This document shows, piece by piece, positions 8,003 through 32,000 of a stretch of 32,000 nucleotides of DNA; positions within the stretch are counted from its first letter, which is position 1; each line of letters opens with the position of its first letter. A model generated the notes under the pieces. It had not been told where the DNA came from. It saw nothing but the letters and a program-made list of their open reading frames with translations, and made no database searches. Source of the stretch: Bacteroidota bacterium (GTDB lineage: Bacteria; Bacteroidota; Bacteroidia; B-17B0; Aurantibacillaceae); assembly GCA_003153315.1 (NCBI GenBank), contig PLYA01000036.1, forward strand, positions 205,858 to 237,857. Reading direction: 5' to 3'. The position numbers and the translations under genes were made by a program.

Positions 8003-8671
8003 ATGCCAAATAAGCTTGAAAAATTTGCCGAGTTTGATACCTTCCAAAACTGTAGCTATCTCCCGTTTGAAGAGATAAAGAATGGGCATCCTTTAAAGGG
8101 CAAATGGCACAAAGAGTACTTTGAAAACCAAAACCCCATCATTCTTGAATTAGGCTGTGGCAAAGGAGAGTACACGGTTGGTATGGCACAGAATAACCTC
8201 AAGAAAAACTATATTGGTGTTGATATAAAGGGCAATCGTATTTGGACGGGTGCCAAGTATGCCAGTATGAATAATATGGTAAACGTGGCTTTTGTGCGCA
8301 CCCGGATTGATTTTATAGAATACTGCTTTGCCGAAAACGAAATAGATGAGATATGGATTACTTTTCCTGACCCTCAACTACAAAAAACACGTACGCGTAA
8401 ACGATTAACAAACCCTTTGTTTTTGAACCGATACAAGAAGTTTCTCAAAAAAGATGGACTCATTCATTTAAAAACAGACAGCACTACTTTTTATGAATAT
8501 ACACTGGAAGTGATTGCAGATAATAAGTTGCCCTTGCTATATTCTACGAATGATTTGTATGAAAATAACCCTTCGGGTAAAGAGGAGCTAACCAATATTA
8601 AAACCCATTACGAGCAGCTTTTTTCAGCCAGAGGAGCTAAGATAAAATACTGTTGCTTTAAATTACATTAA
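8003..8671 (+). CDS. trmB: tRNA (guanine46-N7)-methyltransferase
   Basis: LELGCGKGEYTVGMA SAM motif and IWITFPDPQLQK motif characteristic of TrmB. The 222-aa length is typical. Confidence 0.9.
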   Translation: MPNKLEKFAEFDTFQNCSYLPFEEIKNGHPLKGKWHKEYFENQNPIILELGCGKGEYTVGMAQNNLKKNYIGVDIKGNRIWTGAKYASMNNMVNVAFVRTRIDFIEYCFAENEIDEIWITFPDPQLQKTRTRKRLTNPLFLNRYKKFLKKDGLIHLKTDSTTFYEYTLEVIADNKLPLLYSTNDLYENNPSGKEELTNIKTHYEQLFSARGAKIKYCCFKLH

Positions 8672-11131: not shown

Positions 11132-12175
11132 GTGAAAATCATAGAGGTTAATACTGAAAAAACATGGCGCGGTGGTGAGCGACAAACACTTTACAATATT
11201 CAAGGGTTTATACAACAGGGACACGAAGTAGAATTAATTTGTCGAAAAAATTTTCCTTTGCATCAAAAAACTAAAGACCTAGGTATCCCTATTTATGCTG
11301 TCAATAATGGGCTACAAGCTATTTGGTGCTTAATAAAACGAGCCCGCCATATCAGTATCATACACGCACAAACATCTTCCGGACAAATGTATGGTGTTAT
11401 ATCTTCATTCTTTCATAAAGTGCCTACGGTTTATACACGCCGGGTAGATTTTGTTCCTTCCGGTTTTTTTACCAAACTAAAGTATAAACGCACGAATAAA
11501 ATAATAGCCATATCCATGGCTATAAAAAGTATTTTAGAAAACTTTGGGCTAAGTAATGTTTCTTTAGTTCCTGAAATTGCTATTGCTAAAAGCTTAAATG
11601 AAGAGCGTGCCAAAAAACTAATCCACTTTAAAGGTTGGCATAACAAAAAAATTGTTGCAACGGTTGCAGCGCTTGTTCAGCATAAAGACCCCATTACCAT
11701 GGTGCAGACTATTTATCACTTATCACAAATGCGTGATGATTTTATGTTTCTGCATTTTGGCGAAGGCGTTTTGCGGCATAATGTTAAAAAAGAAATTGCC
11801 CGATTAAATGTTAGCCGCTGGTATCATTTAATGGGGCACGTAGATGATGTGGAAGATTTCTTTTCTGTTTTTGATGTGTTTACTATGAGCTCGGAAGAAG
11901 AGGGGTTGGGCAGCAGTGTGCTGGATGCTTTTATATATAAAGTACCCGTAGTAACAACCAGTGCAGGCGGTTTAAAAGAAGTGGTAGAAGGCAACGGTTT
12001 GGTTTGCGATGTCAAAGATGCCAAAGCACTTGCGATTAGTATTAATGAGGTTTTAAATAATGCTAGTTTAAGAAAAGACATCACTAATTCTGCCTACGAA
12101 ACCGTTATTACAAAATATTCTGTCGAAACCATTACCAAAAAATACGAAGAGGTTTTTAAAGAAGTGCTAAAATAA
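11132..12175 (+). CDS. glycosyltransferase family 4 (GT-B fold)
   Basis: C-terminal EEEGLGSSVLDAFIYKVPVVTTSAGGLKEVV (E-x7-E region). GTG start. Confidence 0.87.
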   Translation: MKIIEVNTEKTWRGGERQTLYNIQGFIQQGHEVELICRKNFPLHQKTKDLGIPIYAVNNGLQAIWCLIKRARHISIIHAQTSSGQMYGVISSFFHKVPTVYTRRVDFVPSGFFTKLKYKRTNKIIAISMAIKSILENFGLSNVSLVPEIAIAKSLNEERAKKLIHFKGWHNKKIVATVAALVQHKDPITMVQTIYHLSQMRDDFMFLHFGEGVLRHNVKKEIARLNVSRWYHLMGHVDDVEDFFSVFDVFTMSSEEEGLGSSVLDAFIYKVPVVTTSAGGLKEVVEGNGLVCDVKDAKALAISINEVLNNASLRKDITNSAYETVITKYSVETITKKYEEVFKEVLK

Positions 12176-14846: not shown

Positions 14847-15926
14847 GTGATAAAGTTTATTCTTAAAAAAGTGTTTTATGGGTTTGTGGTGTTGTTGGGT
14901 GTAATAACTACCATCTTCTTTTTATTTAATGTTCTTCCCGGAGACCCCGCAACAGTATTGCTTGGGCAACGCGCCAACAAAGATGCTGTAGAAGCTATTA
15001 ACAGAGATTTGGGCCGAGATAAGCCGGTACTTACTCAATACTTTATTTACCTGAACGACTTATCTGTTATTTCTTTTCACAACGAGAAAGATAAGAAGAG
15101 CGGTTTTTATTTAGACAAAGAAAAATACTCTTATAAATACTTGTGTTCTTTTGGGGAGGGCGGTTGTATGGTTGCAAAATATCCCTATTTCCGTCGTTCA
15201 TACATTACCAAAAGAAAGGTTTCGGAAATTATAATTGAAACCTTACCCGAAACAGCGGTATTAGCACTTAGCTCTATTATTCTGGCCACCATTGTGGGTA
15301 TATTTTTAGGCATTATTGCGGCTATAAAAAAAGATACTTTCTTTGATCGCTTCTCCCTTGTGCTTTCTGCACTCGGAATGTCTGCTCCTTCATTTTTTGT
15401 AGGAGTAATTATAGCTTGGTTGTTTGGATATATTCTTGCTGATTATACGGGACTTCGAACGATAGGTAGCTTGTATGAATACGATGATTATACAGGAGAG
15501 AAATACCTCAGTCTTAAAAACTTAATACTACCAACCATAACTTTAGGTATGCGTCCCTTAGCTATTGTAGTGCAGCTTATGCGAAGCTCATTATTGGATG
15601 TTCTTTCTCAGGATTATATACGTACTGCCAAAGCCAAAGGCTTAACCTTTTATAAAATTATTATCCGTCACGCACTTAAAAACGCACTAAACCCTGTTGT
15701 TACAGCTATATCAGGTTGGTTTGCGGGGTTGATGGCAGGCGCGGTATTTGTAGAAATTGTGTTTAGCTGGAAGGGTATTGGTTATGAGGTTTTCGATGCG
15801 CTGACTAAGAACGACCTCCCTGTAGTAATGGGTGCAACGCTTATATTTGCTACATTCTTTGTGGTTATTAATATTTTTGTAGACATCATTTACGGTATTC
15901 TCGATCCTCGCATCCGGGTTAAATAA
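14847..15926 (+). CDS. ABC transporter permease, DppB/OppB-type (peptide/nickel family)
   Basis: N-terminal IKFILKKVFYGFVVLLGVITTIFFL..LPGDP. EAA-like loop DYIRTAKAKGLTFYKIIIRHALKNAL. GTG start. Confidence 0.87.
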   Translation: MIKFILKKVFYGFVVLLGVITTIFFLFNVLPGDPATVLLGQRANKDAVEAINRDLGRDKPVLTQYFIYLNDLSVISFHNEKDKKSGFYLDKEKYSYKYLCSFGEGGCMVAKYPYFRRSYITKRKVSEIIIETLPETAVLALSSIILATIVGIFLGIIAAIKKDTFFDRFSLVLSALGMSAPSFFVGVIIAWLFGYILADYTGLRTIGSLYEYDDYTGEKYLSLKNLILPTITLGMRPLAIVVQLMRSSLLDVLSQDYIRTAKAKGLTFYKIIIRHALKNALNPVVTAISGWFAGLMAGAVFVEIVFSWKGIGYEVFDALTKNDLPVVMGATLIFATFFVVINIFVDIIYGILDPRIRVK

Positions 15927-15934
15927 AACTATTT

Positions 15935-16690
15935 ATGCGCAAGAAAATTGTTGCTGCCAACTGGAAAATGAACAAGACTTTACAAGAAGCCCAAGCTCTT
16001 GTAAAAACTATTCTTTCTGGTTCGGGCAGTAATAACGAGGTTACTAAAATAATCATACCCCCTGCCCTGTTCATTACCGAACTTACTCACTTAACAAAGG
16101 AAAATCCTTCCTTTTCTATCGGCGCACAAAACTGTTATCATGCAGAAAGTGGTGCCTTCACAGGAGAGTTAAGCGCCTCTGCCATAGCTTCTTGTGGAGC
16201 TAAGTACCTCATTATTGGTCATTCCGAGCGCCGCCAATATTTTAACGAAACAGCCGATCAACTAAAACAAAAAATAAACCTCGCACTCAAACACAAACTA
16301 ATTCCTATTTATTGTGTGGGCGAAAAACTAAACGAACGCCAAACCAACCATTATTTTACGGCCGTAAAAAACCAGATACAGGAAGTTCTTTTTCATTTAC
16401 CCGAAACAGATATTGAAAACATTATCATTGCCTACGAACCCGTTTGGGCAATAGGCACCGGCTTAAACGCTACTCCCGAACAGGCTCAGGAAATGCATTC
16501 CTTTATTCGGTTTGCAATTATGGAAAAATATGGGGCCGATGTTTCCAATAAAATTAGTATCTTGTATGGCGGTAGTTGCAATGCCAAAAACGCTAAAGAG
16601 TTATTTGCTTGTGCTGATGTAGATGGCGGCTTAATTGGCGGGGCATCCTTAGTTGCTGAAGAGTTTTTACAAATCACTAATTCATTTTAA
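15935..16690 (+). CDS. tpiA: triosephosphate isomerase
   Basis: AANWKMN, IGHSERR and AYEPVWAIGTG signature motifs. Confidence 0.95.
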   Translation: MRKKIVAANWKMNKTLQEAQALVKTILSGSGSNNEVTKIIIPPALFITELTHLTKENPSFSIGAQNCYHAESGAFTGELSASAIASCGAKYLIIGHSERRQYFNETADQLKQKINLALKHKLIPIYCVGEKLNERQTNHYFTAVKNQIQEVLFHLPETDIENIIIAYEPVWAIGTGLNATPEQAQEMHSFIRFAIMEKYGADVSNKISILYGGSCNAKNAKELFACADVDGGLIGGASLVAEEFLQITNSF

Positions 16691-16691
16691 A

Positions 16692-17525
16692 ATGGAATAT
16701 GTTTGTGTCTCTTTTACCGTAAATCCTCCCGAACCCGGCAGTGAGATTTTAGCCTCTGCTCTATCCGAAGAAAACTTTGAAAGTTTTGTACATAACGATA
16801 CCGGCTTCGAGGCATTCATTCAACAACCTTTGTTTAACGAAACTATTCTGCAAAATCTTTCACAGCAATATCCCCGAATAAAGTTTACCCACAGCGTAAA
16901 AAAAATAAAAAACCAAAACTGGAACGAGGTTTGGGAAAAAAGCTTCTCTCCTGTTATTATAGAAAACTTCTGTACCATACGCGCCCCTTTTCACCCCGCT
17001 CCTACCCCACCTCTTTTAGATATTATTATAGAACCTAAAATGTCCTTTGGCACGGGGCATCACCAAACAACTTGGCTCATGTCAAAAGCTTTGTTTGGTT
17101 TAAACCTGCCCAACAAATCTGTTTTAGATGTGGGTTGCGGCACAGGCATCCTTTCCATCATTGCAAAAAAGTTGGGCGCCCAACACGTAATAGGCATTGA
17201 TATAGACGAGTGGAGCATAGAAAACTCACGCGAAAACCGCAAAGCAAATGGTTACCGCAAAGAGGCTATTGATTTTTACCAAGGCACCATTAATAGTATC
17301 GAGAACGATACTTTTGATGTAATGCTGGCAAACATCAACAAAAACATATTGCTTAAAGAAATAAGTAAATACGCGGCTCACCTAAACCCGGGTGGCATAC
17401 TGCTAATCAGTGGTTTTTTTGATAATGATGGCCCCGAGCTTATTGCCGCAGCAGAAAAAACTGCACTAAAAAACACGGGCAAAGAACTTAAAAACGAGTG
17501 GGCAATGCTCTCCTTCCAAAAATAA
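16692..17525 (+). CDS. prmA: ribosomal protein L11 methyltransferase
   Basis: SFGTGHHQTT, DVGCGTGILSI and FDVMLANI motifs. The start is moved to ATG 16692 (MEYVCVSF), directly after the tpiA stop, instead of the overlapping track start at 16653. Confidence 0.9.
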   Translation: MEYVCVSFTVNPPEPGSEILASALSEENFESFVHNDTGFEAFIQQPLFNETILQNLSQQYPRIKFTHSVKKIKNQNWNEVWEKSFSPVIIENFCTIRAPFHPAPTPPLLDIIIEPKMSFGTGHHQTTWLMSKALFGLNLPNKSVLDVGCGTGILSIIAKKLGAQHVIGIDIDEWSIENSRENRKANGYRKEAIDFYQGTINSIENDTFDVMLANINKNILLKEISKYAAHLNPGGILLISGFFDNDGPELIAAAEKTALKNTGKELKNEWAMLSFQK

Positions 17526-18427: not shown

Positions 18428-18522
18428 CCCCACTCCTAACAACCCTCTCTTAATTATATCTAAGTTTAAATTACCTGCCTTTTTATTTATTAATTTGGCT
18501 CATTACTTTGTGCTTATAAATT

Positions 18523-20109
18523 ATGGCATTGAAAAAAAAGATAAAAACTTCTTCTTCTGATTTTAAATCCGAATTAGAATTACATCTAAAAAAATTCTCC
18601 ACTAATCCATACTTATTTATTGGTTCAGGGTTATCGAGAAGGTATTTAAACTTACCGACTTGGCTTACTTTTCTTGAAAGCTTTTACTCTACATTAAACT
18701 TAGATAAGCAGTTTGAATATTATCAATCAAAGTCAAATGGCAGCCTTCCTTTATTAGCATCCATTATTGGAAACGAATTTCATGCAAAATGGTGGGAGCT
18801 TCCTGCTTTTAAGAATAGTAGGGAGTTATATAAAGATTTAGCCAAAGAAAACGAATTATCTCCTTTTAAGATTGAGATCGCAAATAATATAAGAAAGCAT
18901 TCCGTTCCAAATAAAGATTTTGAGGAAGAAATAAATCTATTGAAAAGCTCAGTAATAGATGGGATTATTACAACTAATTGGGATAATTTTTTAAATGAAT
19001 TATTTTCTGACTTCAAGCCTTATATCGGACAACAAGAACTTATGTTTGCTGATTCTTTTTCGGTAGGAGAATTATATAAAATACACGGTTGTTGTTCAAA
19101 GCCAAATAGCATAGTAGTAACAGAGGAGGATTATAAAAATTTCAATTCTAAAAACGCTTATTTAGCCGCAAAATTGCTTACCATTTTTGTGGAACACCCT
19201 ATTATTTTTATTGGCTATTCTATTTCTGATAAAAATATAACGGAATTTTTAAACTCAATTGTTGCGTGTGTAGATACAGAGAGCGTAAAAAAACTTAAAG
19301 ACCGTTTAATATTTGTTGAATGGTCGTCCAAAGCAACTAAAAATAAAATATCAGATAGTAATATTGTTCTTGCAAGCGGATCTGTCTTACCAATCAAGCA
19401 TATTGAAGCGCATAGTTTTAAAGAGTTATTCGAGGTTTTAGCAAGTTTAAAAAAGCGATTACCAGTTAAAATCCTAAGGCAATTAAGGGATGCGGTTTAT
19501 GATTTGGTAAAAACAAATAATTCGAGCAAAACAAAACTTGTTGGAGACTTATTAAATAATGAACATACTGAGGATATAGAATTTGTTATTGGTGTTGGCG
19601 CAACCTCTTTTACGGAACAGGGATATAAAGGAATAACCGCACTTGAAATATTAGAGGACGCAATATTAGAAAACAAGGATTTCGACTGTATAAAGCTGGT
19701 TGAACTTACAATTCCACAAATGATAAAAAGTTCTGTCTACTTACCTGTTTATAAACACTTAAGAAAGGCAAAACTTCTTGACGAAAAAGGAAATATTATT
19801 AAATCATATAACCATTCTGAAAAACTTATTGAGTTTTTAAAAACTAATAAGGTCGAAACCTATTATCCTTCGGATAGCTATGCAAGAAAAAGGTCTGAAA
19901 TTCGAAAAAAATATGGAACCGTTCAAAGCATAACTAGTTCATTCGATAAGGTACATGCATTATATTATATTCCTTTATTAGAAAAGGAAAACATAGATTT
20001 AAAGGATTTAAAGAAATTTTTAAAAGACTGTTTTAATGATGCTACAGTAAAAAAAGATACAACCTTTAAAAAGGTAGTTTGTCTTTATGACTATTTAAAA
20101 TACAATTAA
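18523..20109 (+). CDS. SIR2_2-type sirtuin-like protein with an unassigned C-terminal half (candidate NADase defence effector)
   Basis: Ordered SIR2_2 motifs: FIGSGLSRR (aa 32-40), ITTNWDNFL (Asn152), LYKIHGC (His188), IIFIGYSISD (aa 227-236). Residues from about 290 to 528 have no recognisable domain. The gene is visibly AT-richer than the flanking genes. Confidence 0.8.
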   Translation: MALKKKIKTSSSDFKSELELHLKKFSTNPYLFIGSGLSRRYLNLPTWLTFLESFYSTLNLDKQFEYYQSKSNGSLPLLASIIGNEFHAKWWELPAFKNSRELYKDLAKENELSPFKIEIANNIRKHSVPNKDFEEEINLLKSSVIDGIITTNWDNFLNELFSDFKPYIGQQELMFADSFSVGELYKIHGCCSKPNSIVVTEEDYKNFNSKNAYLAAKLLTIFVEHPIIFIGYSISDKNITEFLNSIVACVDTESVKKLKDRLIFVEWSSKATKNKISDSNIVLASGSVLPIKHIEAHSFKELFEVLASLKKRLPVKILRQLRDAVYDLVKTNNSSKTKLVGDLLNNEHTEDIEFVIGVGATSFTEQGYKGITALEILEDAILENKDFDCIKLVELTIPQMIKSSVYLPVYKHLRKAKLLDEKGNIIKSYNHSEKLIEFLKTNKVETYYPSDSYARKRSEIRKKYGTVQSITSSFDKVHALYYIPLLEKENIDLKDLKKFLKDCFNDATVKKDTTFKKVVCLYDYLKYN

Positions 20110-20110
20110 T

Positions 20111-20176
20111 GGGTTTGCAAACCCGCATACAAGATTACATCGATAATCCGCTTGCGCGGATTTGCAATCCGTGCGC
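20111..20176. repeat. REP-like hairpins centred on TTTGCAA
   Basis: gggTTTGCAAAccc (20111-20124). aatccgc-ttgc-gcggatt (20144-20161) overlaps gcgcggaTTTGCAAtccgtgcgc (20154-20176). Confidence 0.55.
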
Positions 20177-20189
20177 CTAAATAATAAAA

Positions 20190-21044
20190 ATGAAACAACA
20201 AAACGCCATACAACTATTCGAAGACAAAAAGGTAAGAACCCTTTGGGATGCCGAGCAAGAAAAATGGTACATATCCATTATTGATGTTATTGAAATATTA
20301 ACCAATACCGATAGACCCCGAAAATACTGGAGCGATTTAAAAACCAAACTTAAAAACGAAGGAAGCGAGTTGTCCGAAAAAATCGGACAACTGAAAATGC
20401 AATCTGCCGATGGAAAATACTACAAAACAGATGTAGCTGATACAGAGCAGCTTTTCAGGCTTATACAATCTATACCCTCGCCAAAAGCCGAGCCCTTTAA
20501 ACTATGGCTGGCGCAGGTTGCCAACGAGCGGTTAGACGAAATGCAAGACCCCGAACTTGGTATAGACCGCGCGCTGGAACAATACCTACTACTGGGCTAC
20601 TCCGAAAACTGGATAAACCAACGCCTTAAAAGTATTGAAATAAGAAAAGAACTTACCGACGAGTGGAAAAAACGGGGCTTAAAACAAGGGCAACAATTTG
20701 CCACCCTTACTGATATTATTACCAAAGCTTGGGCGGGCAAAACCACCAAAGAGTATAAGGTGTTGAAAGGTTTAAAAAAAGAAAACCTTAGAGATAACAT
20801 GACCAACACCGAACTTATTTTAAACATGCTTGCCGAAGCTTCTGCAAAAGATATTTCTCAAGCTGTAAACCCCAAGGGTTTTTCGGCAAGTAAAAAAGTT
20901 GCCGCACAGGGCGGCAATGTAGCCAAAGTAGCACGCAAAGAACTGGAAGCCAAAACAGGCAAAAAGGTGGTAACAGCCTTAAATGCAAAAGCCGTTTTGC
21001 AACAAAACAAAAGCGCGAAAAACCTGGGCACAAAAAAGAAATAA
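20190..21044 (+). CDS. Bro-N domain / DinD-like (DNA-damage-inducible protein D family) protein
   Basis: N-terminal Bro-N-like VRTLWDAEQEKWYISIIDVIEIL, then the conserved block DVADTEQLFRLIQSIPSPKAEPFKLWLAQVANERLDE. The C-terminal NMTNTELILNMLAEA region parallels E. coli DinD. Confidence 0.8.
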   Translation: MKQQNAIQLFEDKKVRTLWDAEQEKWYISIIDVIEILTNTDRPRKYWSDLKTKLKNEGSELSEKIGQLKMQSADGKYYKTDVADTEQLFRLIQSIPSPKAEPFKLWLAQVANERLDEMQDPELGIDRALEQYLLLGYSENWINQRLKSIEIRKELTDEWKKRGLKQGQQFATLTDIITKAWAGKTTKEYKVLKGLKKENLRDNMTNTELILNMLAEASAKDISQAVNPKGFSASKKVAAQGGNVAKVARKELEAKTGKKVVTALNAKAVLQQNKSAKNLGTKKK

Positions 21045-21048
21045 GTAA

Positions 21049-21098
21049 AACCTTAAACCCTCCTCACATAACTTTCGTTTATCATTCGCTCCACATCC
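21049..21098. repeat. left 50-bp direct repeat; detached copy of the 3' end of the HTH gene (21696-21956)
   Basis: aaccttaaaccctcctcacataactttcgtttatcattcgctccacatcc matches 21692-21741 at 47/50. Its reverse complement reads DVERMINESYVRRV*. Confidence 0.85.
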
Positions 21099-21123
21099 AA
21101 ACAACCAAACACAACTAATTATA

Positions 21124-21180
21124 CCCTTCGACAGGCTCAGGGTACGGAAGCCACTCGGTCGTTGAGCTTGTCGAAACGCC
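21124..21180 (+). repeat. REP-type long hairpin element (copy A)
   Basis: Stem ttcgacaggctca (21127-21139) / tgagcttgtcgaa (21163-21175) with one G-T position. A nearly identical copy lies at 21631-21686. Confidence 0.8.
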
Positions 21181-21218
21181 CGAAGCAAATAATAAAAAAT
21201 ATCCCTACTTTTATAATC

Positions 21219-21518
21219 ATGAAGGGCTATATGTATATATTACAATGCGCCAATGGGTTTTATTATACTGGCAGCACTATAGATTTAGGGCTTCGTATTA
21301 AACAACATCAGAATGGAGAGGGGGCTAATTTTACAAAAAAGCACTTACCCGTTGTTTTAGTTTATTTCGAAGAGTTTCAAAGAATTGATGAAGCATTTAA
21401 TAGAGAGAAACAAGTACAAGGCTGGAGCCGAAAAAAGAAAGAAGCATTAATTAATAGCGAGTACAACAAACTCCCCGAACTGTCTAAGAATTATACACAA
21501 TATAAAGCAGATGATTAA
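21219..21518 (+). CDS. GIY-YIG nuclease family protein (UPF0213/Slx1-like, about 100 aa)
   Basis: MKGYMYILQCANGFYYTGSTIDLGLRIKQHQNG...EAFNREKQVQGWSRKKKEALI contains the GIY..YTG, R, and E..K.W.R motifs. ATG 21219 is chosen because the track start at 21162 is a TTG inside the REP element. Confidence 0.85.
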   Translation: MKGYMYILQCANGFYYTGSTIDLGLRIKQHQNGEGANFTKKHLPVVLVYFEEFQRIDEAFNREKQVQGWSRKKKEALINSEYNKLPELSKNYTQYKADD

Positions 21519-21544
21519 TACTTTTGTCGTTAGTGTTAAGTTTC

Positions 21545-21686
21545 GGACGTTGAGCCCATTCAGTGGTCGTTGAGCTCTCGGTCATTGAGCTTGTCGAAAC
21601 GCCCGCTGTGAAAAACATGTTACAATTGTACCCTTCGACAGGCTCAGGGTACGGTTGCTCTCGGTCGTTGAGCTTGTCGAAACGCC
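21545..21686 (+). repeat. REP cluster: partial tandem copies (gtcgttgagc x3) plus full hairpin copy A' (21631-21686)
   Basis: acgttgagccc, gtcgttgagctc and gtcattgagcttgtcgaaacgcc, then cccttcgacaggctcagggtacggttgctctcggtcgttgagcttgtcgaaacgcc. Confidence 0.8.
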
Positions 21687-21691
21687 GAAAC

Positions 21692-21741
21692 AACCTTAAG
21701 CCCTTCTCACATAACTTTCGTTTATCATTCGTTCCACATCC
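21692..21741. repeat. right 50-bp direct repeat (functional 3' end of the HTH gene)
   Basis: 47/50 identical to 21049-21098. The reverse complement reads DVERMINESYVRRA*. Confidence 0.85.
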
Positions 21742-21956
21742 TCCACCTTATAATACACCTTTTTCCCAATCACAATATAAGCAACCTTCCCAAGCGTTCT
21801 CCAGCGCAATGCCGTTCGTTTAGATATGTTCATCAACATAATAAACTCCTGGTTATCAATAATTCCTTGTGGTCTGTTTTTGTTCACCACCTCCGGGTTC
21901 AAAATCTTTGCACCCCTGTACACTTCCTTTTTTACTAAAATCTGTTCCATCTGCAT
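21696..21956 (-). CDS. helix-turn-helix (HTH_17 / excisionase-MerR-like) DNA-binding protein
   Basis: NISKRTALRWRTLGKVAYIVIGKKVYYKVEDVERMI matches the HTH_17 pattern (TlyrWr..G.l....ig....y...dve) common in Bacteroidota mobile elements. Confidence 0.72.
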   Translation of the reverse strand: MQMEQILVKKEVYRGAKILNPEVVNKNRPQGIIDNQEFIMLMNISKRTALRWRTLGKVAYIVIGKKVYYKVEDVERMINESYVRRA

Positions 21957-22161
21957 TACATATTACAAACCTAAAACTACAAAATAATTAGCAACAAAAA
22001 GCTAAAAATTTTAGCAATTACCATAACCGCCTGATAATAATATTCTTAAAAAACAGGTTCAGCTAAAAGCCATATAGCGCCACATTGGGTCATCTCCCGC
22101 CAAAGGCAGCCGGCATGCGCCATACGCTACCAAGCCCTTGCAAAGCGCCTTGCTCCCACCC

Positions 22162-22169
22162 TACTTTTG
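22162..22169 (+). promoter_or_regulatory. candidate -7 promoter box (TAnnTTTG), with a possible -33 TTG at 22138-22140
   Basis: TACTTTTG matches exactly, with a TTG 21 nt upstream. If used, array 2 would be transcribed as a leader of roughly 0.46 kb for the 22641 gene. Confidence 0.3.
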
Positions 22170-22236
22170 CCAAGGGTTTTGATAATAAAAGCAAAACCGG
22201 AAAAAGAAATCTTACCAAAAAAACTTAAAAGTATGA

Positions 22237-22530
22237 CTGATTTTGCAAAACACCCACATGATTTAGCAAAAAGTGTAACCGGCTTAACAAATTGTACGGA
22301 CGATTTCTCAAAAAGTATGAGCGTGTTTAAAAATCATGTACCCAATTTTAAAAAACATCTGCATGATTTAGTAAAAGGTATAAACGATTTGATAAATCAG
22401 TTGAACGATTCATCAAATCTTCCGCACGACTTTGCAAAAAGCACGCAAGCGTTGCAAAAACATTCAACCGATTTGCGAAATCGTTTGCACGATTTACTAA
22501 AAAGTATGTACGTCTTTGCAAATCGTATAA
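22237..22530 (+). repeat. array 2: 14 head-to-tail direct repeats, exact 21-bp period
   Basis: Units start at 22237 + 21n. Examples: acgactttgcaaaaagcacgc, acgatttactaaaaagtatgt, ccgatttgcgaaatcgtttgc. Consensus aCGATTTgCAAAAAg + about 6 variable nt. No indels. Confidence 0.9.
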
Positions 22531-22640
22531 CAAAAAACATAAGAGCTGTTTTTTACAGGAATAAAAGTCCGCCGCGGCGCAAAAACGTAAACTTCATTTC
22601 TTATAACCTGATAATTATTAACTATAAAAAACCAAAAAAT

Positions 22641-23321
22641 ATGTCCAATCCAAAAGCAGCATTAAACATGCCCAATAAAATAGGCGATAAAATAATACGC
22701 GCCCAATCTATACAAACCAAGCTTACAGGAAACGCCAATTTCCCTGTTGGTAGTTGGCCTGCCAACATAGTAAGTTTAACCCAGTTTGGTACCGATGTTA
22801 CGACGCTAGTAACTACCGAAACGGCGGTTGTAAATAAAACAGGCACGGTGGCAGCACGAAACGCCGCTCTTACCGTAGTACTAACCGACCTGCGCGCATT
22901 AAAAACCATGGTGCAGGTAAAAGCCGATGCCAACCCGGCTAATGCAGCTAATATTATTATAAGCGCAGGGTTTATTGTAGTAACGCGCAGCAATCATAGT
23001 AAAAGGCAAAACCAGGCCTTAAACACCGAGGTACTTGGCACCGTATTGCTTACTGCCGATAAAGGAGGGCACCACGAGTGGCAAATGAGCAAAGATGGCG
23101 GAACCACCATTGTTAATCTGCCCGCTACCACTACCAGCATTACAAAAGTAACAGGCCTAAACCCGGGCGATGTATGGTATTTTAGGAACCGTAAAGTGAA
23201 CACTAAAAAAACCACTTATAACTGGAGTACCTGGCTTAAGTTAATTATAGGTCCGGGTGGAAAAACCACAGGAGGTGGAAACCAATCGGGTGTGGCTGGT
23301 AGTTTACCAAATACTTTATAA
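22641..23321 (+). CDS. orphan protein with helical N-terminal half and Fn3-like C-terminal beta-sandwich; module-2 gene
   Basis: ATG 22641 (MSNPKAALNMPNK). The C-terminal HEWQMSKDGGTTIVNLPATTTSITKVTGLNPGDVWYFRNRK...YNWSTW resembles an Fn3 signature. More GC-rich than the surroundings and has its own terminator. The track ORF extends upstream to 22167 through the repeat array (alternative ATG at 22233). Confidence 0.72.
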   Translation: MSNPKAALNMPNKIGDKIIRAQSIQTKLTGNANFPVGSWPANIVSLTQFGTDVTTLVTTETAVVNKTGTVAARNAALTVVLTDLRALKTMVQVKADANPANAANIIISAGFIVVTRSNHSKRQNQALNTEVLGTVLLTADKGGHHEWQMSKDGGTTIVNLPATTTSITKVTGLNPGDVWYFRNRKVNTKKTTYNWSTWLKLIIGPGGKTTGGGNQSGVAGSLPNTL

Positions 23322-23341
23322 ATACTATTTTGATATGTACT

Positions 23342-23375
23342 AAAAGCCCTGCAGTTCTTGCAGGGTTTTTATTTT
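23342..23375 (+). terminator. Rho-independent terminator
   Basis: Stem ccctgca (23347-23353) / tgcaggg (23359-23365), followed by TTTTTATTTT. Confidence 0.8.
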
Positions 23376-23394
23376 GCTCTTTGAAATATTGTGA

Positions 23395-23410
23395 TGTTTC
23401 ACGTGAAACT
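23395..23410. other. parS-like ParB-binding site 1
   Basis: TGTTTCACGTGAAACT matches 15/16 positions of the Bacillus-type consensus TGTTNCACGTGAAACA. The 14-bp core is a perfect palindrome. Intergenic. Confidence 0.6.
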
Positions 23411-23447
23411 ATTTAGATTAATCTCAAATTGAAACAGCGGGCAGCCC

Positions 23448-23522
23448 GACCAAACGCGGAGCAGTTTAGCCTCGTGTGTGGCAGATCGTTTGGTCTTGAC
23501 TTTTTGTTTCTTTTTCGTCAAG
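23448..23522. other. structured intergenic element (two hairpins)
   Basis: gaccaaacg (23448-23456) / cgtttggtc (23487-23495) and cttgac (23495-23500) / gtcaag (23517-23522). It translates to the LTFCFFFVKEK-type string seen in Bacteroidota repeat families. Confidence 0.35.
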
Positions 23523-23565
23523 GAAAAAGAAAAATGAATAAGGAAATAGTTTGGCTTATTTACTT

Positions 23566-23581
23566 TGTTCCACGTGGAACT
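23566..23581. other. parS-like ParB-binding site 2
   Basis: TGTTCCACGTGGAACT matches 14/16 to consensus. The GTTCCACGTGGAAC core is a perfect palindrome. It lies 2 nt from the stop codon of the methyltransferase gene (stop at 23584-23586). Confidence 0.55.
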
Positions 23582-23583
23582 AA

Positions 23584-24480
23584 TTAAACCTTTCTGAAAA
23601 TATAAATCTGGCTGGAGAATTCTTTGCCGGTTTTATTGGCCTTTATGTTGGATATTAAACCCCTCATAAAAGCACTTATTAGCTTATTAGAGCCTGTTTT
23701 ATACTTCTCGCTAAGCATACTCACATAAAAAGAATCGAACACCATGGGGAGAGTTTTTTCCAGCTTAAAGCCATTATCAGAAAATAGTTTGGTGACGGCC
23801 TTAGGTTCAAAGTGCCAAAGATGTCTTGGCAAATCGTAAGCCGCCCAAAACTCTTTGTAGTGTTTTGCATCATGACTCTCGGGGTTTGGAACCGCCACAA
23901 TAAATATACCTTTGGTCTTCAGGGCGTTCTTTAAGGTTAAAATAGTCTCCTTTAAATCGGGCACATGTTCCAATACATGCCAGGCAGTTACCACATCCAA
24001 ATTGGCAAACAAATGGCTGGTTTGCGCTTCCTCCAAAGAAGCTGATGCAGAAATACCAAACTTATCTGCCATCACCTTACGGGCAACCTCATCGGGCTCT
24101 ATGCCATAAGCTTCCCATTTATTGGTTTTGCAGGTGTTTAAAAAAGCGCCTGTTCCGGCACCATAATCTAATATCTTTCCGCTCTTTAATTTGCTATGTT
24201 GCATTACCAATTGCAGCTTCTTAATTAGGGTGTAAGATCTTACCCAATGGTATAGTTTATTAACCAACCCCTTCTTGGTATCTGAGTGAGAAATGTAATC
24301 CTCTGCCTTATAATATTTACCCAAATCAGCATCCTGGGGGCGGGGAGAAGTGAATTTAAAACCACAGTCTTTGCATTGCTTTATTTCAAAGTCTTGCTTA
24401 GAAACCGTGTAATCTTTACAAACTAAAAACGGCTCAATGTTAATTGAACCGCATATTAAACAAGTATTTATATTCTTCAT
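23584..24480 (-). CDS. class I SAM-dependent methyltransferase with N-terminal Cys4 zinc ribbon
   Basis: CLICGS...CKDCGF zinc ribbon and the ILDYGAGTGAFL SAM motif. The DVVTAWHVLEHV block is typical of Methyltransf_11/23-like enzymes. Confidence 0.85.
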   Translation of the reverse strand: MKNINTCLICGSINIEPFLVCKDYTVSKQDFEIKQCKDCGFKFTSPRPQDADLGKYYKAEDYISHSDTKKGLVNKLYHWVRSYTLIKKLQLVMQHSKLKSGKILDYGAGTGAFLNTCKTNKWEAYGIEPDEVARKVMADKFGISASASLEEAQTSHLFANLDVVTAWHVLEHVPDLKETILTLKNALKTKGIFIVAVPNPESHDAKHYKEFWAAYDLPRHLWHFEPKAVTKLFSDNGFKLEKTLPMVFDSFYVSMLSEKYKTGSNKLISAFMRGLISNIKANKTGKEFSSQIYIFRKV

Positions 24481-24489
24481 AATTCTAAT

Positions 24490-24505
24490 TGTTTCACGTG
24501 GAACT
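24490..24505. other. parS-like ParB-binding site 3
   Basis: TGTTTCACGTGGAACT matches 14/16 to consensus and is a hybrid of the half-sites of sites 1 and 2. It sits between the methyltransferase start and the mnmG stop, overlapping the stop codon by 2 nt. Confidence 0.55.
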
Positions 24506-26390
24506 ATCTGCCCATATAAACCATAAGTATAGAAACATCTGATGGGTTAATGCCCGAAATACGGGATGCCTGCCCAAGGGTTTGTGGTTTAATTTTCTTT
24601 AGTTTTTCTCTGGCTTCGGCAGATATACTTGACACCTCATCGTAGTTAAAATCGGGCCTTAGTTTTAATTCCTCCAGCCTTTTTAGCTTATCGGCATTCT
24701 CACTTTCGCGCTCGATATAGCCATCGTATTTCATCAAAATCTCAGCTTGTTCTATGGTCTCATTATTGTACATGGAAACATTTTTATCCAGCTCTTTACA
24801 GTACCTAAGCATATCCGGAATAGAAATATTAGGACGAGAAAGCACATTATAATACCTCATCTTTTGTGTGATAGGGGAGGAGTTTATACTTTCTAAAAAG
24901 GGATTTATCTCTGCCGGTTCAATACTATTGTTCTTAAAATAACTGATAATAGATTCTGCGTTCTTAATCTTTTCCTCAACTTTTTTCATTCGTTCTGCAG
25001 AAGCCAAACCAAGTTTATGAGAAATAGGGGTGAGGCGAGTATCGGCATTATCCTGTCTTAAAAGCAAACGATATTCAGAACGGCTGGTAAACATACGATA
25101 GGGTTCGTCGGTGCCTTTATTAACCAAATCATCAATTAAAACACCAATATAACCATCATACCTGTTAAGAATAAGGCTATCATTTTCGCTAATCTTTAAA
25201 TGGGCATTCATTCCTGCCATAAGTCCTTGACAAGCAGCCTCTTCGTAGCCTGTAGTGCCATTGATTTGTCCTGCAAAATACAGATTATCAATTAGTTGTG
25301 TCTCTAAAGTTAACCTTAACTGAGTAGGGGGGAAGTAGTCATACTCAATAGCATAGCCCGGGCGGAACATTTTAGCGTTCTCTAAGCCAGGTATTAATTG
25401 CAGCGCTTTGTGCTGAACGTCTTCCGGCAAGGAAGTAGAAAAGCCATTCAGGTAGATCTCAACTGTATCCCAACCTTCAGGTTCAATAAACAACTGGTGA
25501 CGCTCTCTTTCAGAGAAACGGGAAATCTTATCTTCTATAGAAGGGCAGTAGCGAGGTCCGCGACCCTGAATGCGTCCGGCAAACATGGGAGATTGCTCGA
25601 AGCCCGTTTTTAATATATCGTGTACCTGTTGGTTGGTATAAGTAATGTGGCAAGGCACTTGCTTTTTTGCGTTTGCACCCATAAAAGGAGAGGTTCCATC
25701 CAAATAAGAAAACTTATCGAGGTGTTCATCACCTTCCTGCAACTCTGTTTTAGAATAATCTATAGAACGACCATCCAAGCGAGGAGGTGTGCCTGTTTTC
25801 ATGCGTCCGCTTTCAAAACCAAGTGCAACTAATTGTTCGGTAATGCCGAAAGCAGCTTTCTCTCCGGTTCTTCCACCCGAGAAATTCTTTTCCCCTATGT
25901 GAATTAATCCATTTAAAAAAGTGCCATTGGTAAGTACAACCGCTTTAGCTTTGAACTGAATGCCCATTCCGGTAACAACACCTTCTACTCGTTTACCATC
26001 TTTGCTTATCAGTAAAGAGTTTACGGTATCCTGCCAAAAATCTACATTAGGTGTTTGCTCCAGCATTTTGCGCCATTCGTTAGCAAACATCATCCTGTCG
26101 TTTTGCGTACGCGGGCTCCACATAGCGGGGCCTTTGCTACGGTTAAGCATACGGAATTGTATGGCAGATTTATCGGATATAATACCCGAATAACCGCCCA
26201 TGGCATCAATCTCTCTTACAATTTGTCCTTTGGCAATGCCACCCATGGCGGGGTTGCAGCTCATTTGGGCAATGGTTTGCATGTTCATGGTTATTAATAA
26301 AACCTTTGAACCCATGTTGGCAGCAGAAGCGGCAGCTTCGCAACCGGCATGACCAGCACCAACAACAATTATATCGTAAGATGATTGCAT
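24504..26390 (-). CDS. mnmG: tRNA uridine 5-carboxymethylaminomethyl modification enzyme MnmG (GidA)
   Basis: YDIIVVGAGHAGCEAA FAD motif and GPRYCPSIEDK. Full-length similarity to GidA. ATG 26390 (MQSSYDII) is preferred over the TTG at 26405. Confidence 0.95.
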   Translation of the reverse strand: MQSSYDIIVVGAGHAGCEAAASAANMGSKVLLITMNMQTIAQMSCNPAMGGIAKGQIVREIDAMGGYSGIISDKSAIQFRMLNRSKGPAMWSPRTQNDRMMFANEWRKMLEQTPNVDFWQDTVNSLLISKDGKRVEGVVTGMGIQFKAKAVVLTNGTFLNGLIHIGEKNFSGGRTGEKAAFGITEQLVALGFESGRMKTGTPPRLDGRSIDYSKTELQEGDEHLDKFSYLDGTSPFMGANAKKQVPCHITYTNQQVHDILKTGFEQSPMFAGRIQGRGPRYCPSIEDKISRFSERERHQLFIEPEGWDTVEIYLNGFSTSLPEDVQHKALQLIPGLENAKMFRPGYAIEYDYFPPTQLRLTLETQLIDNLYFAGQINGTTGYEEAACQGLMAGMNAHLKISENDSLILNRYDGYIGVLIDDLVNKGTDEPYRMFTSRSEYRLLLRQDNADTRLTPISHKLGLASAERMKKVEEKIKNAESIISYFKNNSIEPAEINPFLESINSSPITQKMRYYNVLSRPNISIPDMLRYCKELDKNVSMYNNETIEQAEILMKYDGYIERESENADKLKRLEELKLRPDFNYDEVSSISAEAREKLKKIKPQTLGQASRISGINPSDVSILMVYMGR

Positions 26391-26402
26391 TTTTAAGAAG
26401 CG

Positions 26403-26410
26403 CAAAATTA
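26403..26410 (-). promoter_or_regulatory. candidate -7 promoter box (TAnnTTTG) for mnmG
   Basis: The minus strand reads TAATTTTG, ending 12 nt before the ATG at 26390. Confidence 0.3.
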
Positions 26411-26444
26411 CAACAAAATTGGTTGCGCTCTTACTAAGAAAAGA

Positions 26445-27200
26445 TTAAACCATGTTTAATCGCTGTAAAAGCTCGTCTTTATAAGACCCACCAATAGGAA
26501 TTGGTTTTTTATCTTTTTCTAAAATAAGGTTGTGATTCTCTATGGCAACAATTTTATCCACTCTAACAATAAACGAACGATGTACGCGCATAAACTCATT
26601 AGGCGCTACTTTCTTCTCAATATCCTTCATAGTTGAGTGAATAGTGTAACGCATAAGCTCAGTGTTTATGGTTACATAGTCTTTTAGTGCCTCAATAAAG
26701 AAAATATCTTTTGTATTGATTTTTACTAAACGACTGTTTGATTTTACAAATAGAACATCTTTTGCGCCTTCTTTATTTTCAACTATTGAATATAAAAAAT
26801 CTCTTTCTTTTCTTAGTTCGGTTAATTTTTTGTGGCGATGGATTGCCATTTCAATAGAGATATTTAAATCCTTTTCTTTAAACGGTTTTAAAATATAGCC
26901 ATAAGGTTCGGTTACTTTTGCTTTTGCAAGCGTAGCTTCATCAGCATAGGCTGTTAAAAATATAACAGGAATATTAAGCAGTTTTATTTTATCAGCCGCG
27001 TCGATACCGGTTAAGGTACCCTTAAGCATAATGTCCATTAAAACTACATCAGGGTGTAGCTCGGTTGCCAATTCAATTGCCTCTTCGGCGTTGTTGCAAG
27101 AACCAATTACGCTATAACCTATTTTTTTAAGGCTGTTTTGGATGTCTTTTGAAACGATGCTCTCGTCTTCAACAACAAGTATGTTAATGGTGTTTGACAT
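26445..27200 (-). CDS. LytTR-family two-component response regulator
   Basis: Receiver domain (ILVVEDE, DVVLMDIML, KPF) plus a C-terminal LytTR domain (IFFIEALKDYVTINT...RVHRSFIV). Confidence 0.9.
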   Translation of the reverse strand: MSNTINILVVEDESIVSKDIQNSLKKIGYSVIGSCNNAEEAIELATELHPDVVLMDIMLKGTLTGIDAADKIKLLNIPVIFLTAYADEATLAKAKVTEPYGYILKPFKEKDLNISIEMAIHRHKKLTELRKERDFLYSIVENKEGAKDVLFVKSNSRLVKINTKDIFFIEALKDYVTINTELMRYTIHSTMKDIEKKVAPNEFMRVHRSFIVRVDKIVAIENHNLILEKDKKPIPIGGSYKDELLQRLNMV

Positions 27201-31511: not shown

Positions 31512-32000
31512 TTAAGATAAAGACAACATTCGTAAAATTGGTTTTTTAGCCGCTTCTATTAAATGAACCGGTAGTAATAATTCGGGTTGCTCATATTTTA
31601 ATGTTAAGTAAATTTTTTCCAATGTATTTAACTTCATATGCGGACAATCGTTACAAGCACAACTGTTATTTGGTGGTGCCGGAATAAATGTTTTTTTAGG
31701 TGAGTTTTTTATCATTTGATGTAAAATACCCGTTTCGGTTGCTACTATAAATTCTTTACATGGATTTGTTTTAGTATAGTTTAAAATAGCCGTTGTACTA
31801 CCAATAAAATCAGCCTTATCTAATACAACGGCTTCACATTCGGGATGCGCGACTAATTGTGCTTGCGGATGTTGTATTTTCAGTTTAGTAATTTTTTCTA
31901 ACGAAAATATTTCGTGTACCATACAAGCACCATCCCATAACAACATGTTACGCTTTGTTATTTTATTTATATAAGCTCCCAGGTTTTTATCGGGTGCAAA
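31512..32000 (-). CDS. nadA: quinolinate synthase, N-terminal part lies outside the window
   Basis: WDGACMVHE, AHPEC, VATETGILH and CNDCPHMKLNTLEK (Fe-S cysteines). The frame stays open from 31946 to 32000 and reads FAPDKNLGAYINKITKRN. Confidence 0.9.
   Translation of the reverse strand, partial: FAPDKNLGAYINKITKRNMLLWDGACMVHEIFSLEKITKLKIQHPQAQLVAHPECEAVVLDKADFIGSTTAILNYTKTNPCKEFIVATETGILHQMIKNSPKKTFIPAPPNNSCACNDCPHMKLNTLEKIYLTLKYEQPELLLPVHLIEAAKKPILRMLSLS

Follow-up and report, generated by a model that had tools for sequence, protein, structure and literature searches.

The protein considered here is encoded by a complete open reading frame (ORF) with an ATG start at positions 18523-20109, on the plus strand, of a 32,000-nucleotide stretch (the window) of contig PLYA01000036.1 from a Bacteroidota bacterium of the Aurantibacillaceae. 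Its 528 amino acids combine an N-terminal SIR2 domain of the SIR2_2, or “SIRim”, type with an all-alpha C-terminal domain that is peculiar to its own family. The reading we favor, with a probability of roughly 0.6, is that this protein would act as a single-protein abortive-infection NADase in the manner of DSR proteins, with the family-specific C-terminal domain as its putative sensor; the function is inferred. The protein is a fairly diverged Bacteroidota member of a family that is already catalogued, as PDC-S25 in PADLOC and as PHROG 2695.

The SIR2 domain is a Rossmann-fold domain and a putative NADase effector, encoded by 18559-19452 (residues ~13-310). The Pfam family SIR2_2 (PF13289) matches residues 147-270 with an E-value of 2.7e-23, at 83.1 bits against a gathering cutoff of 24.5. 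In the translation, the glycine-rich NAD-binding loop FIGSGLS occupies residues 32-38 (18616-18636), the ITTNWD motif is encoded at 18967-18984 and contains the putative catalytic Asn152 (codon 18976-18978), and the YKIHGC motif at 19075-19092 contains the putative catalytic His188 (codon 19084-19086). The translation also holds IFIGYSISD, VIGVGATSF, SVYLPVYKHLRKAKLLDEKGN and a Lys-rich tail. An initial annotation of the window had proposed this SIR2_2 motif series, with Asn152 and His188 in these very places, and it is borne out by the translation, by the Pfam match and by an alignment of 34 homologues sharing 44-65% identity. Across that alignment, N152, H188, D154 and the GYSxxD motif are invariant, as are F32, S35, G36 and S38 of the loop, with G34 conserved in at least 90% of the sequences. 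A phmmer alignment with DSR2 pairs N133 of DSR2 with N152 and H171 of DSR2 with H188; H171A is the catalytically dead mutant in several cryo-EM entries of DSR2 in the PDB. The SIR2 part is acidic, having an isoelectric point (pI) of 5.3 and a net charge of -9. The cysteines of the whole protein are found only at positions 190, 191, 249, 389, 503 and 520, and they form no CxxC pairs. The GC content across 18.5-20 kb is 0.30-0.31 vs ~0.40 on either side, so the gene is indeed AT-richer than its neighbors, as had been remarked. A sigma-70 promoter scan and a search for the Bacteroidota TAnnTTTG motif found no enrichment, and upstream of the SIR2 gene they gave near-matches at best.

The three-dimensional organization was modeled with AlphaFold2 on the 34-sequence alignment, giving a mean predicted local distance difference test score (pLDDT) of 83.8 for the full protein. 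The model places an alpha/beta SIR2 fold at residues ~13-310 with a pLDDT of about 90. A linker follows at residues 311-362 (19453-19608), consisting of a conserved helix (residues 315-331) and then a Gly-rich segment of low confidence at residues ~335-365; the pLDDT over residues 311-370 is 44-62. The low-confidence segment carries the invariant GVG motif (G357, G359), and the equally invariant G367 comes just after it. Residues 363-528 (19609-20106) are predicted to form a compact all-alpha domain at a pLDDT of 85-97, and they do likewise when modeled alone; this is the proposed sensor or regulatory module. The initial annotation had described an uncharacterized C-terminal domain of 240 residues. 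Uncharacterized it is, but the bounds have to be redrawn on the model, with the SIR2 fold running to residue ~310 and the linker separating it from a domain that begins only at residue 363.

Comparison with known structures gave very different outcomes for the two parts. When the full-length model was compared with the PDB using Foldseek, only the SIR2 domains of antiphage NADases were matched, with E-values of 4e-8 to 1e-6, and these were KomC/KomBC, BcThsA, EcThsA, SeThsA and DSR2; sequence matches in the PDB were to DSR2, ThsA and KomC. The SIR2 domain is regarded as a putative antiphage NADase because its closest relatives in both sequence and structure, namely DSR2, ThsA and KomC, are all antiphage NADases. 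The C-terminal model, on the other hand, matched nothing significantly, either in the PDB (best E = 3.2, probability at most 0.07) or among the predicted viral structures of BFVD (best E = 0.94). Profile searches were no more productive: a profile of 41 C-terminal domains from many phyla reached a best E-value of 0.067 against all PDB sequences, and Pfam scans of the same 41 domains returned scattered single matches only, all above E = 0.009. On the model, then, the C-terminal domain is a compact helical fold, confidently predicted and without a known relative. The SLOG fold is Rossmann-like, and the C-terminal domain is therefore not a SLOG domain, since it is all-alpha; the doubt expressed earlier about a SLOG-like C-terminal half proved justified.

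The C-terminal domain has features of its own that are shared within the family. It is basic, with a median pI of 9.1 and a net charge of +6.5, and an acidic SIR2 domain together with a basic C-terminal domain fits electrostatic autoinhibition and nucleic-acid binding alike. Its mean pairwise identity is 38%, vs 58% for the SIR2 core, and falls to only 30% over residues 421-470; faster evolution of this kind is what would be expected of a recognition module. Eight positions of the domain, namely P398, P408, K411, Y453, L486, C520, Y522 and D523, are nevertheless invariant in the 34 sequences.

The family itself is well delimited. The PADLOC model PDC-S25 (PDLC04968) matches over the full length with E = 4.5e-169 (residues 13-528, aligned to positions 9-515 of the 517 in the profile), and PHROG phrog_2695 does so with E = 5.9e-128 (residues 20-527 against positions 5-525 of 531); the C-terminal domain alone matches phrog_2695 with E = 2.9e-17. 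PDC-S25 and phrog_2695 are the same family. The window protein shares with it the single-gene architecture and an end-to-end match to its hidden Markov models (HMMs), C-terminal domain included, and we found no structural difference. Its nearest relative in a collection of 5.8 billion proteins is 65% identical. The annotation of phrog_2695 reads “unknown function”. PDC-S25 is one of 145 untested phage defense candidates reported by Payne et al. (2024, bioRxiv 10.1101/2024.01.29.577857); this family was put forward on the grounds of “guilt-by-embedding”, the host loci being BREX, DISARM or type I restriction-modification (R-M) systems. Portions of the supplements of that work contain no entry for PDC-S25, PDC-S13, S25 or SIR2. 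Another paper lists PDC-S25 in one strain of E. coli O157:H7. Published phylogenomics has found a 12-fold enrichment of bacterial SIRim-clade proteins near antiphage systems, and has already made the case for an immune role of this entire clade of SIR2 proteins. The suggestion that the sensor module might be new thus needs to be divided: its fold has no known match, but the family is already on record as PDC-S25 and PHROG 2695. What had been catalogued is the whole protein, including the C-terminal domain; what is left unexplained is the C-terminal domain only.

Has the C-terminal domain been joined to other proteins as well, in the manner of a movable module? An exhaustive phmmer search with residues 363-528 against 1.84 billion representative proteins gave 227 matches at E ≤ 1e-3, and in the best 150 of these the domain lies at the extreme C-terminus without exception (150/150). 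The 147 matches that were retrieved comprise 63 full-length proteins collinear with the window protein, 79 shorter collinear fragments, and 5 proteins with an extra or unaligned N-terminus. Because the matches are collinear with SIR2, the SIR2 and C-terminal domains are best taken as one evolutionary unit. The idea of a promiscuous module was rejected, as the domain was found only behind this type of SIR2 in the 227 matches, leaving aside one chimera (P0263) in which it follows FolD; we judged that chimera to be an assembly artifact or a pseudogene. The remaining unusual N-termini are few. One protein of 598 residues (P0349) carries an XRE-type helix-turn-helix (HTH) ahead of SIR2 and the C-terminal domain, and another of 703 residues (P0363) has a weak EVE/PUA-like N-terminal match that stays under the Pfam cutoff (E = 5.8e-4); such additions suggest some connection with the recognition of nucleic acids or with self-regulation. 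Two short proteins, P0334 (265 residues) and P0340 (176 residues), begin with 71-77 unaligned residues; the sole Pfam match of P0334 is a sub-cutoff one to DNA_pol3_alpha, and P0340 has none.

It is useful to set the protein beside the sirtuin-based defense systems that are already understood. DSR2 of Bacillus subtilis (PDB 8wkt, 8k98 and further entries) likewise consists of one polypeptide, with a SIR2 NADase domain at its N-terminus, equivalent Asn and His residues and a non-enzymatic helical C-terminal region, and it needs no partner gene. It is also the best sequence match in the PDB (E = 8e-8), with the similarity confined to residues 147-246 of the window protein. The two differ in size and in the part that follows SIR2: DSR2 has ~1,000 residues, including a MID domain and, at its C-terminus, an alpha-solenoid domain to which the phage tail tube binds, whereas the present protein has 528, its C-terminal domain of ~165 residues has no Foldseek match to DSR2 at E ≤ 10, and no DSR model is among its PADLOC matches. 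ThsA of Thoeris (SIR2-SLOG; PDB 6lhx, 8bto, 7uxt) is homologous in its SIR2 domain, by the PADLOC ThsA1 model (E = 3e-17 over residues 118-315) as well as by structure (Foldseek E about 1e-7), and has a similar length of ~480-530 residues and a two-module layout. However, its second module is a SLOG (STALD) or Macro domain, while the C-terminal half of the window protein is all-alpha and without a Foldseek match to ThsA; moreover, Thoeris has an adjacent ThsB/TIR gene, which is found neither in the window nor among the top neighbor families at positions ±1 of 78 homologous loci. A SLOG or Thoeris variant was thus considered and rejected on three grounds, the all-alpha C-terminal domain, the restriction of the ThsA HMM match to SIR2 and the missing TIR gene.

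The top structural match of the SIR2 domain is KomC of the Kongming (KomBC) system (PDB 8zsf, 9v0g), with a Foldseek E-value of 3.6e-8 and a template modeling (TM) score, normalized to the target, of 0.55-0.70. KomC is a SIR2-only protein of 264-278 residues that works with partner proteins and a nucleotide signal (dITP), unlike the window protein, which brings its own C-terminal domain and has no partners. SIR2-HerA has an adjacent HerA-type ATPase, and none is present in the window or conserved in the related loci; SPARSA (SIR2-APAZ with a short pAgo) is represented here only by a marginal Aga_SIR2 match (E = 0.011), with no pAgo in the window; and Avs5 (SIR2-STAND) has an NTPase domain, which neither Pfam nor PADLOC detects in the window protein. 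There is in fact no room for a STAND domain, because SIR2 and the helical C-terminal domain fill the 528 residues. The 32-kb window as a whole contains no gene for TIR/ThsB, HerA, pAgo or STAND; the initial annotation had noted that none was adjacent.

Relatives of the protein are numerous and widely scattered. At E < 1e-5 there are more than 2,510 matching protein clusters, almost all of them ~520 residues long with 96-98% coverage, and 535 stretches in a one-genome-per-species collection encode a relative. They come from Bacteroidota, Planctomycetota, Alpha-, Beta- and Gammaproteobacteria, Actinomycetota, Chloroflexota, Myxococcota, Verrucomicrobiota and Bacillota, and the distribution is patchy across at least six phyla. 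The neighborhoods of 78 of the 535 loci were surveyed using crude ORF calls within ±10 kb, which were then clustered. No conserved partner gene emerged, the commonest neighbor cluster being present in 8 of the 78, and the gene is thus stand-alone in its family as well as in the window. Type I R-M genes recur (HsdM at 8 loci, HsdS at 7 and the largest HsdR cluster at 5), mostly at positions -1 to -4; the HsdR count covers the clusters that were scanned against Pfam and leaves aside two more of ~1,040 residues, seen at 3 and 2 loci. N6/N4 DNA methylase, tyrosine integrase and serine recombinase are found at 4 loci each, and genes at positions ±1 match the PADLOC models for MADS mad2/mad3, PARIS AriA, NsnB and type IIG systems. 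Some homologues are adjacent to type I R-M loci or lie inside them; the window copy, unlike these, has no R-M neighbor.

Many copies are carried by mobile elements. The family is present on 249 plasmid records, including pXO2 of B. anthracis, where the copy (L091, NZ_CP076145.1 44994-46619) adjoins an integrase. The tblastn similarity of the pXO2 copy ends at residue ~421, and its distal C-terminal domain has diverged. In the prophage phBC6A51 of B. cereus, the copy (L090, BC1912) has the lysis cassette on one side and the lysogeny module on the other. These plasmid and prophage homologues are annotated merely as “SIR2 family protein” or “hypothetical protein”. A further 80 loci in IMG/VR carry the family, and 21 of 64 near-full-length copies there are within ~2.2 kb of a contig end. 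This is a context typical of a horizontally mobile accessory or defense gene and not of a syntenic housekeeping gene. Looking at the homologues had been recommended as a check on the defense assignment, and the survey turned up recurrent R-M, PARIS-like and recombinase neighbors, in settings that are non-syntenic, mobile and often beside defense genes.

In the window, the gene lies in a variable island of ~5.2 kb (18428-23583) between a gene for a DUF6268 outer-membrane protein and the Methyltransf_23 and mnmG genes. In two relatives (L088 and L089), the gene order is TIM, PrmA, DUF6268, ~50 bp, Methyltransf_23, MnmG and a LytTR regulator, with no island; their DUF6268 protein is about 70% identical to that of the window and their methyltransferase 77%. 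Since the same flanks occur there without the intervening genes, 18428-23583 is a 5.2-kb insertion. Another relative (L087) has a gap of ~1 kb at the same site, and in a fourth (L085) the downstream genes differ; no island proteins were detected in these relatives. We found neither a tRNA nor convincing att repeats at the island borders, and an Rfam scan of 17.0-24.6 kb gave only a sub-threshold chance match.

How would such a protein work? We propose that the acidic N-terminal SIR2 domain is a latent NAD+ glycohydrolase that would use Asn152 and His188, and that the basic C-terminal domain (residues 363-528), held on its flexible Gly-rich linker, would keep the enzyme off in the absence of infection. 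An infection cue would be detected by the C-terminal domain, which would then switch the enzyme on, probably with a change of oligomeric state; the cue would most likely be a phage-derived macromolecule that is bound directly, as in DSR2. The resulting depletion of NAD+ would abort the infection.

Several points weigh against this proposal. That the C-terminal domain would be a sensor is argued from analogy, because it has no recognizable fold or ligand-binding motif, and its invariant residues could equally mean a small-molecule pocket or an oligomerization interface. Some SIR2/SIRim proteins process NAD in ways other than bulk depletion. Recognizable defense genes are directly adjacent in only a minority of the 78 loci. 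In the literature on PDC-S25 and on stand-alone SIR2 proteins, we found no experimental study of any family member, and a later paper leaves out the PDCs altogether “because they are unvalidated”.

There are four other explanations to be weighed against a self-contained abortive-infection NADase. In one of them, which we consider unlikely, SIR2 would use NAD+ differently, for instance in ADP-ribosylating a protein or a nucleic acid, with the basic C-terminal domain as a targeting module that binds nucleic acid, or the protein would serve competition between mobile elements or addiction in place of phage defense proper. The contrast between the consistently basic C-terminal domain and the acidic SIR2, the carriage of the family by plasmids and prophages, and the rare members whose N-terminus bears an XRE HTH or a weakly matched EVE-like domain speak for this explanation. 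On the other side, the closest characterized relatives, DSR2, ThsA and KomC, are all NAD+-degrading antiphage effectors, and no known nucleic-acid-binding fold was detected in the C-terminal domain by Foldseek, profile or Pfam searches. We regard as similarly improbable the bolder idea that the C-terminal domain is a new sensor binding phage nucleic acid or some other conserved non-protein cue, and the family a third, compact class of self-contained, defense-associated sirtuins operating without Argonaute or HerA, perhaps by ADP-ribosylation in place of plain NAD+ depletion. It is distinctly less probable that the protein is a signal-activated effector whose C-terminal domain binds a second messenger of the Thoeris or CBASS type, made by a sensor encoded elsewhere. 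The ThsA1 match of the SIR2 part speaks for such a mechanism, and the invariant C-terminal residues could line a pocket; but the domain has neither a SLOG nor a Macro fold, the similarity to ThsA does not extend outside SIR2, the window contains no gene for a TIR, a cyclase or another enzyme that would make a signal, nor is one conserved near the 78 homologues, and on plasmids and prophages the gene is carried by itself.

A two-gene system, in which the Bro-N protein (PDC-S13) encoded just downstream would be the sensor or regulator of the SIR2 effector, looks very unlikely to us. Both genes lie on one strand and are separated by only 80 bp, in which there is no canonical T-tailed terminator, and both are PADLOC candidates. 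Against a joint function, none of the 78 other loci has a Bro-N homologue within 10 kb of the SIR2 gene, PADLOC treats PDC-S25 and PDC-S13 as independent single-gene candidates, and the intergenic region contains two hairpins. As for a housekeeping role, that of an NAD-dependent protein deacylase like CobB, membership in the SIR2 superfamily is what can be said for it, and we give it hardly any credence. The CobB/Sir2 deacylases have a canonical sirtuin match in Pfam and a Cys4 zinc module, and the window protein has neither: PF13289 is its sole sirtuin-family Pfam match at E ≤ 0.1, and no Cys4 zinc-ribbon pattern is present. The gene is, in addition, missing at the same locus in close relatives, and its homologues are non-syntenic and patchily distributed.

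Among the other genes of the island, the Bro-N, GIY-YIG and HTH_17 genes named in the initial annotation are confirmed by their Pfam matches, as is the island itself by the empty sites in the relatives. The Bro-N protein (20190-21044, plus strand) matches PF02498 (E = 1.3e-11), PADLOC PDC-S13 (E = 2.4e-135) and phrog_15286 (E = 8e-120), so the island holds two independent catalogued defense candidates, PDC-S25 and PDC-S13, side by side. Next is a gene for a small GIY-YIG nuclease (21162-21518, plus strand; PF01541, E = 3.1e-16), with a likely true start near 21219, which is bracketed by GC-rich direct repeats at 21117-21147 and 21624-21654 (97%). Further repeats flank it at 21151-21180, 21574-21603 and 21657-21686 (90-97%), and an outer pair lies at 21049-21098 and 21692-21741 (94%), the last copy of which overlaps the 3' end of the HTH_17 ORF. 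The arrangement looks like a repeat element that moves together with small GIY-YIG genes and yields spurious ORFs (with, for example, “FDKLNDRE” and “LSLSKG” peptides). The HTH_17 gene (21696-21956, minus strand) encodes a small excisionase-like protein, matching PF12728 (E = 2.2e-6) and the excisionase/regulator family phrog_66 (E = 5e-5).

The last ORF of the island (22167-23321, plus strand; 362-384 residues, 362 according to the gene caller) has no assigned family, with no match above threshold in Pfam, PADLOC, NCBIfam or PHROG. Three tandem repeats at intervals of 84-105 nt lie in its N-terminus (22240-22501, peptide pattern “F.K..HDL.KS”), and a strong terminator-like hairpin lies 3' of it at 23341-23371. 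The Methyltransf_23 gene (23584-24480, minus strand) marks the right-hand border of the island. It is flanked by three copies of a palindromic TGTTTCACGTGAAACTAT-like motif with the core GTTYCACGTGRAAC (23395-23412, 23566-23583 and 24490-24507), which may bind a regulator or represent an intergenic repeat. The remainder of the window, outside the island, is housekeeping. One ORF of the housekeeping region gives a weak PADLOC match to SduA (Shedu, DUF4263; E = 6.2e-8) that is probably a generic domain match; the ORF is among those at 8003-8671, 11132-12175, 14847-17525, 23584-27200 and 31512-31946 and is outside the ten ORFs that were re-scanned.

For the window itself the result is modest: a gene within a small defense or mobile island was rightly recognized, and it was already catalogued. 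The wider significance lies in the family. PDC-S25 is a good target for validating PADLOC candidates and, if the proposed function is confirmed, it would take its place beside DSR1 and DSR2 among the validated sirtuin defenses made of one protein, at half their size. The main scientific value is in the C-terminal domain. If the trigger of this domain were found, the sensor modules known from bacterial immunity would gain a new one, and it might become clear how so small a SIR2 enzyme is kept silent.

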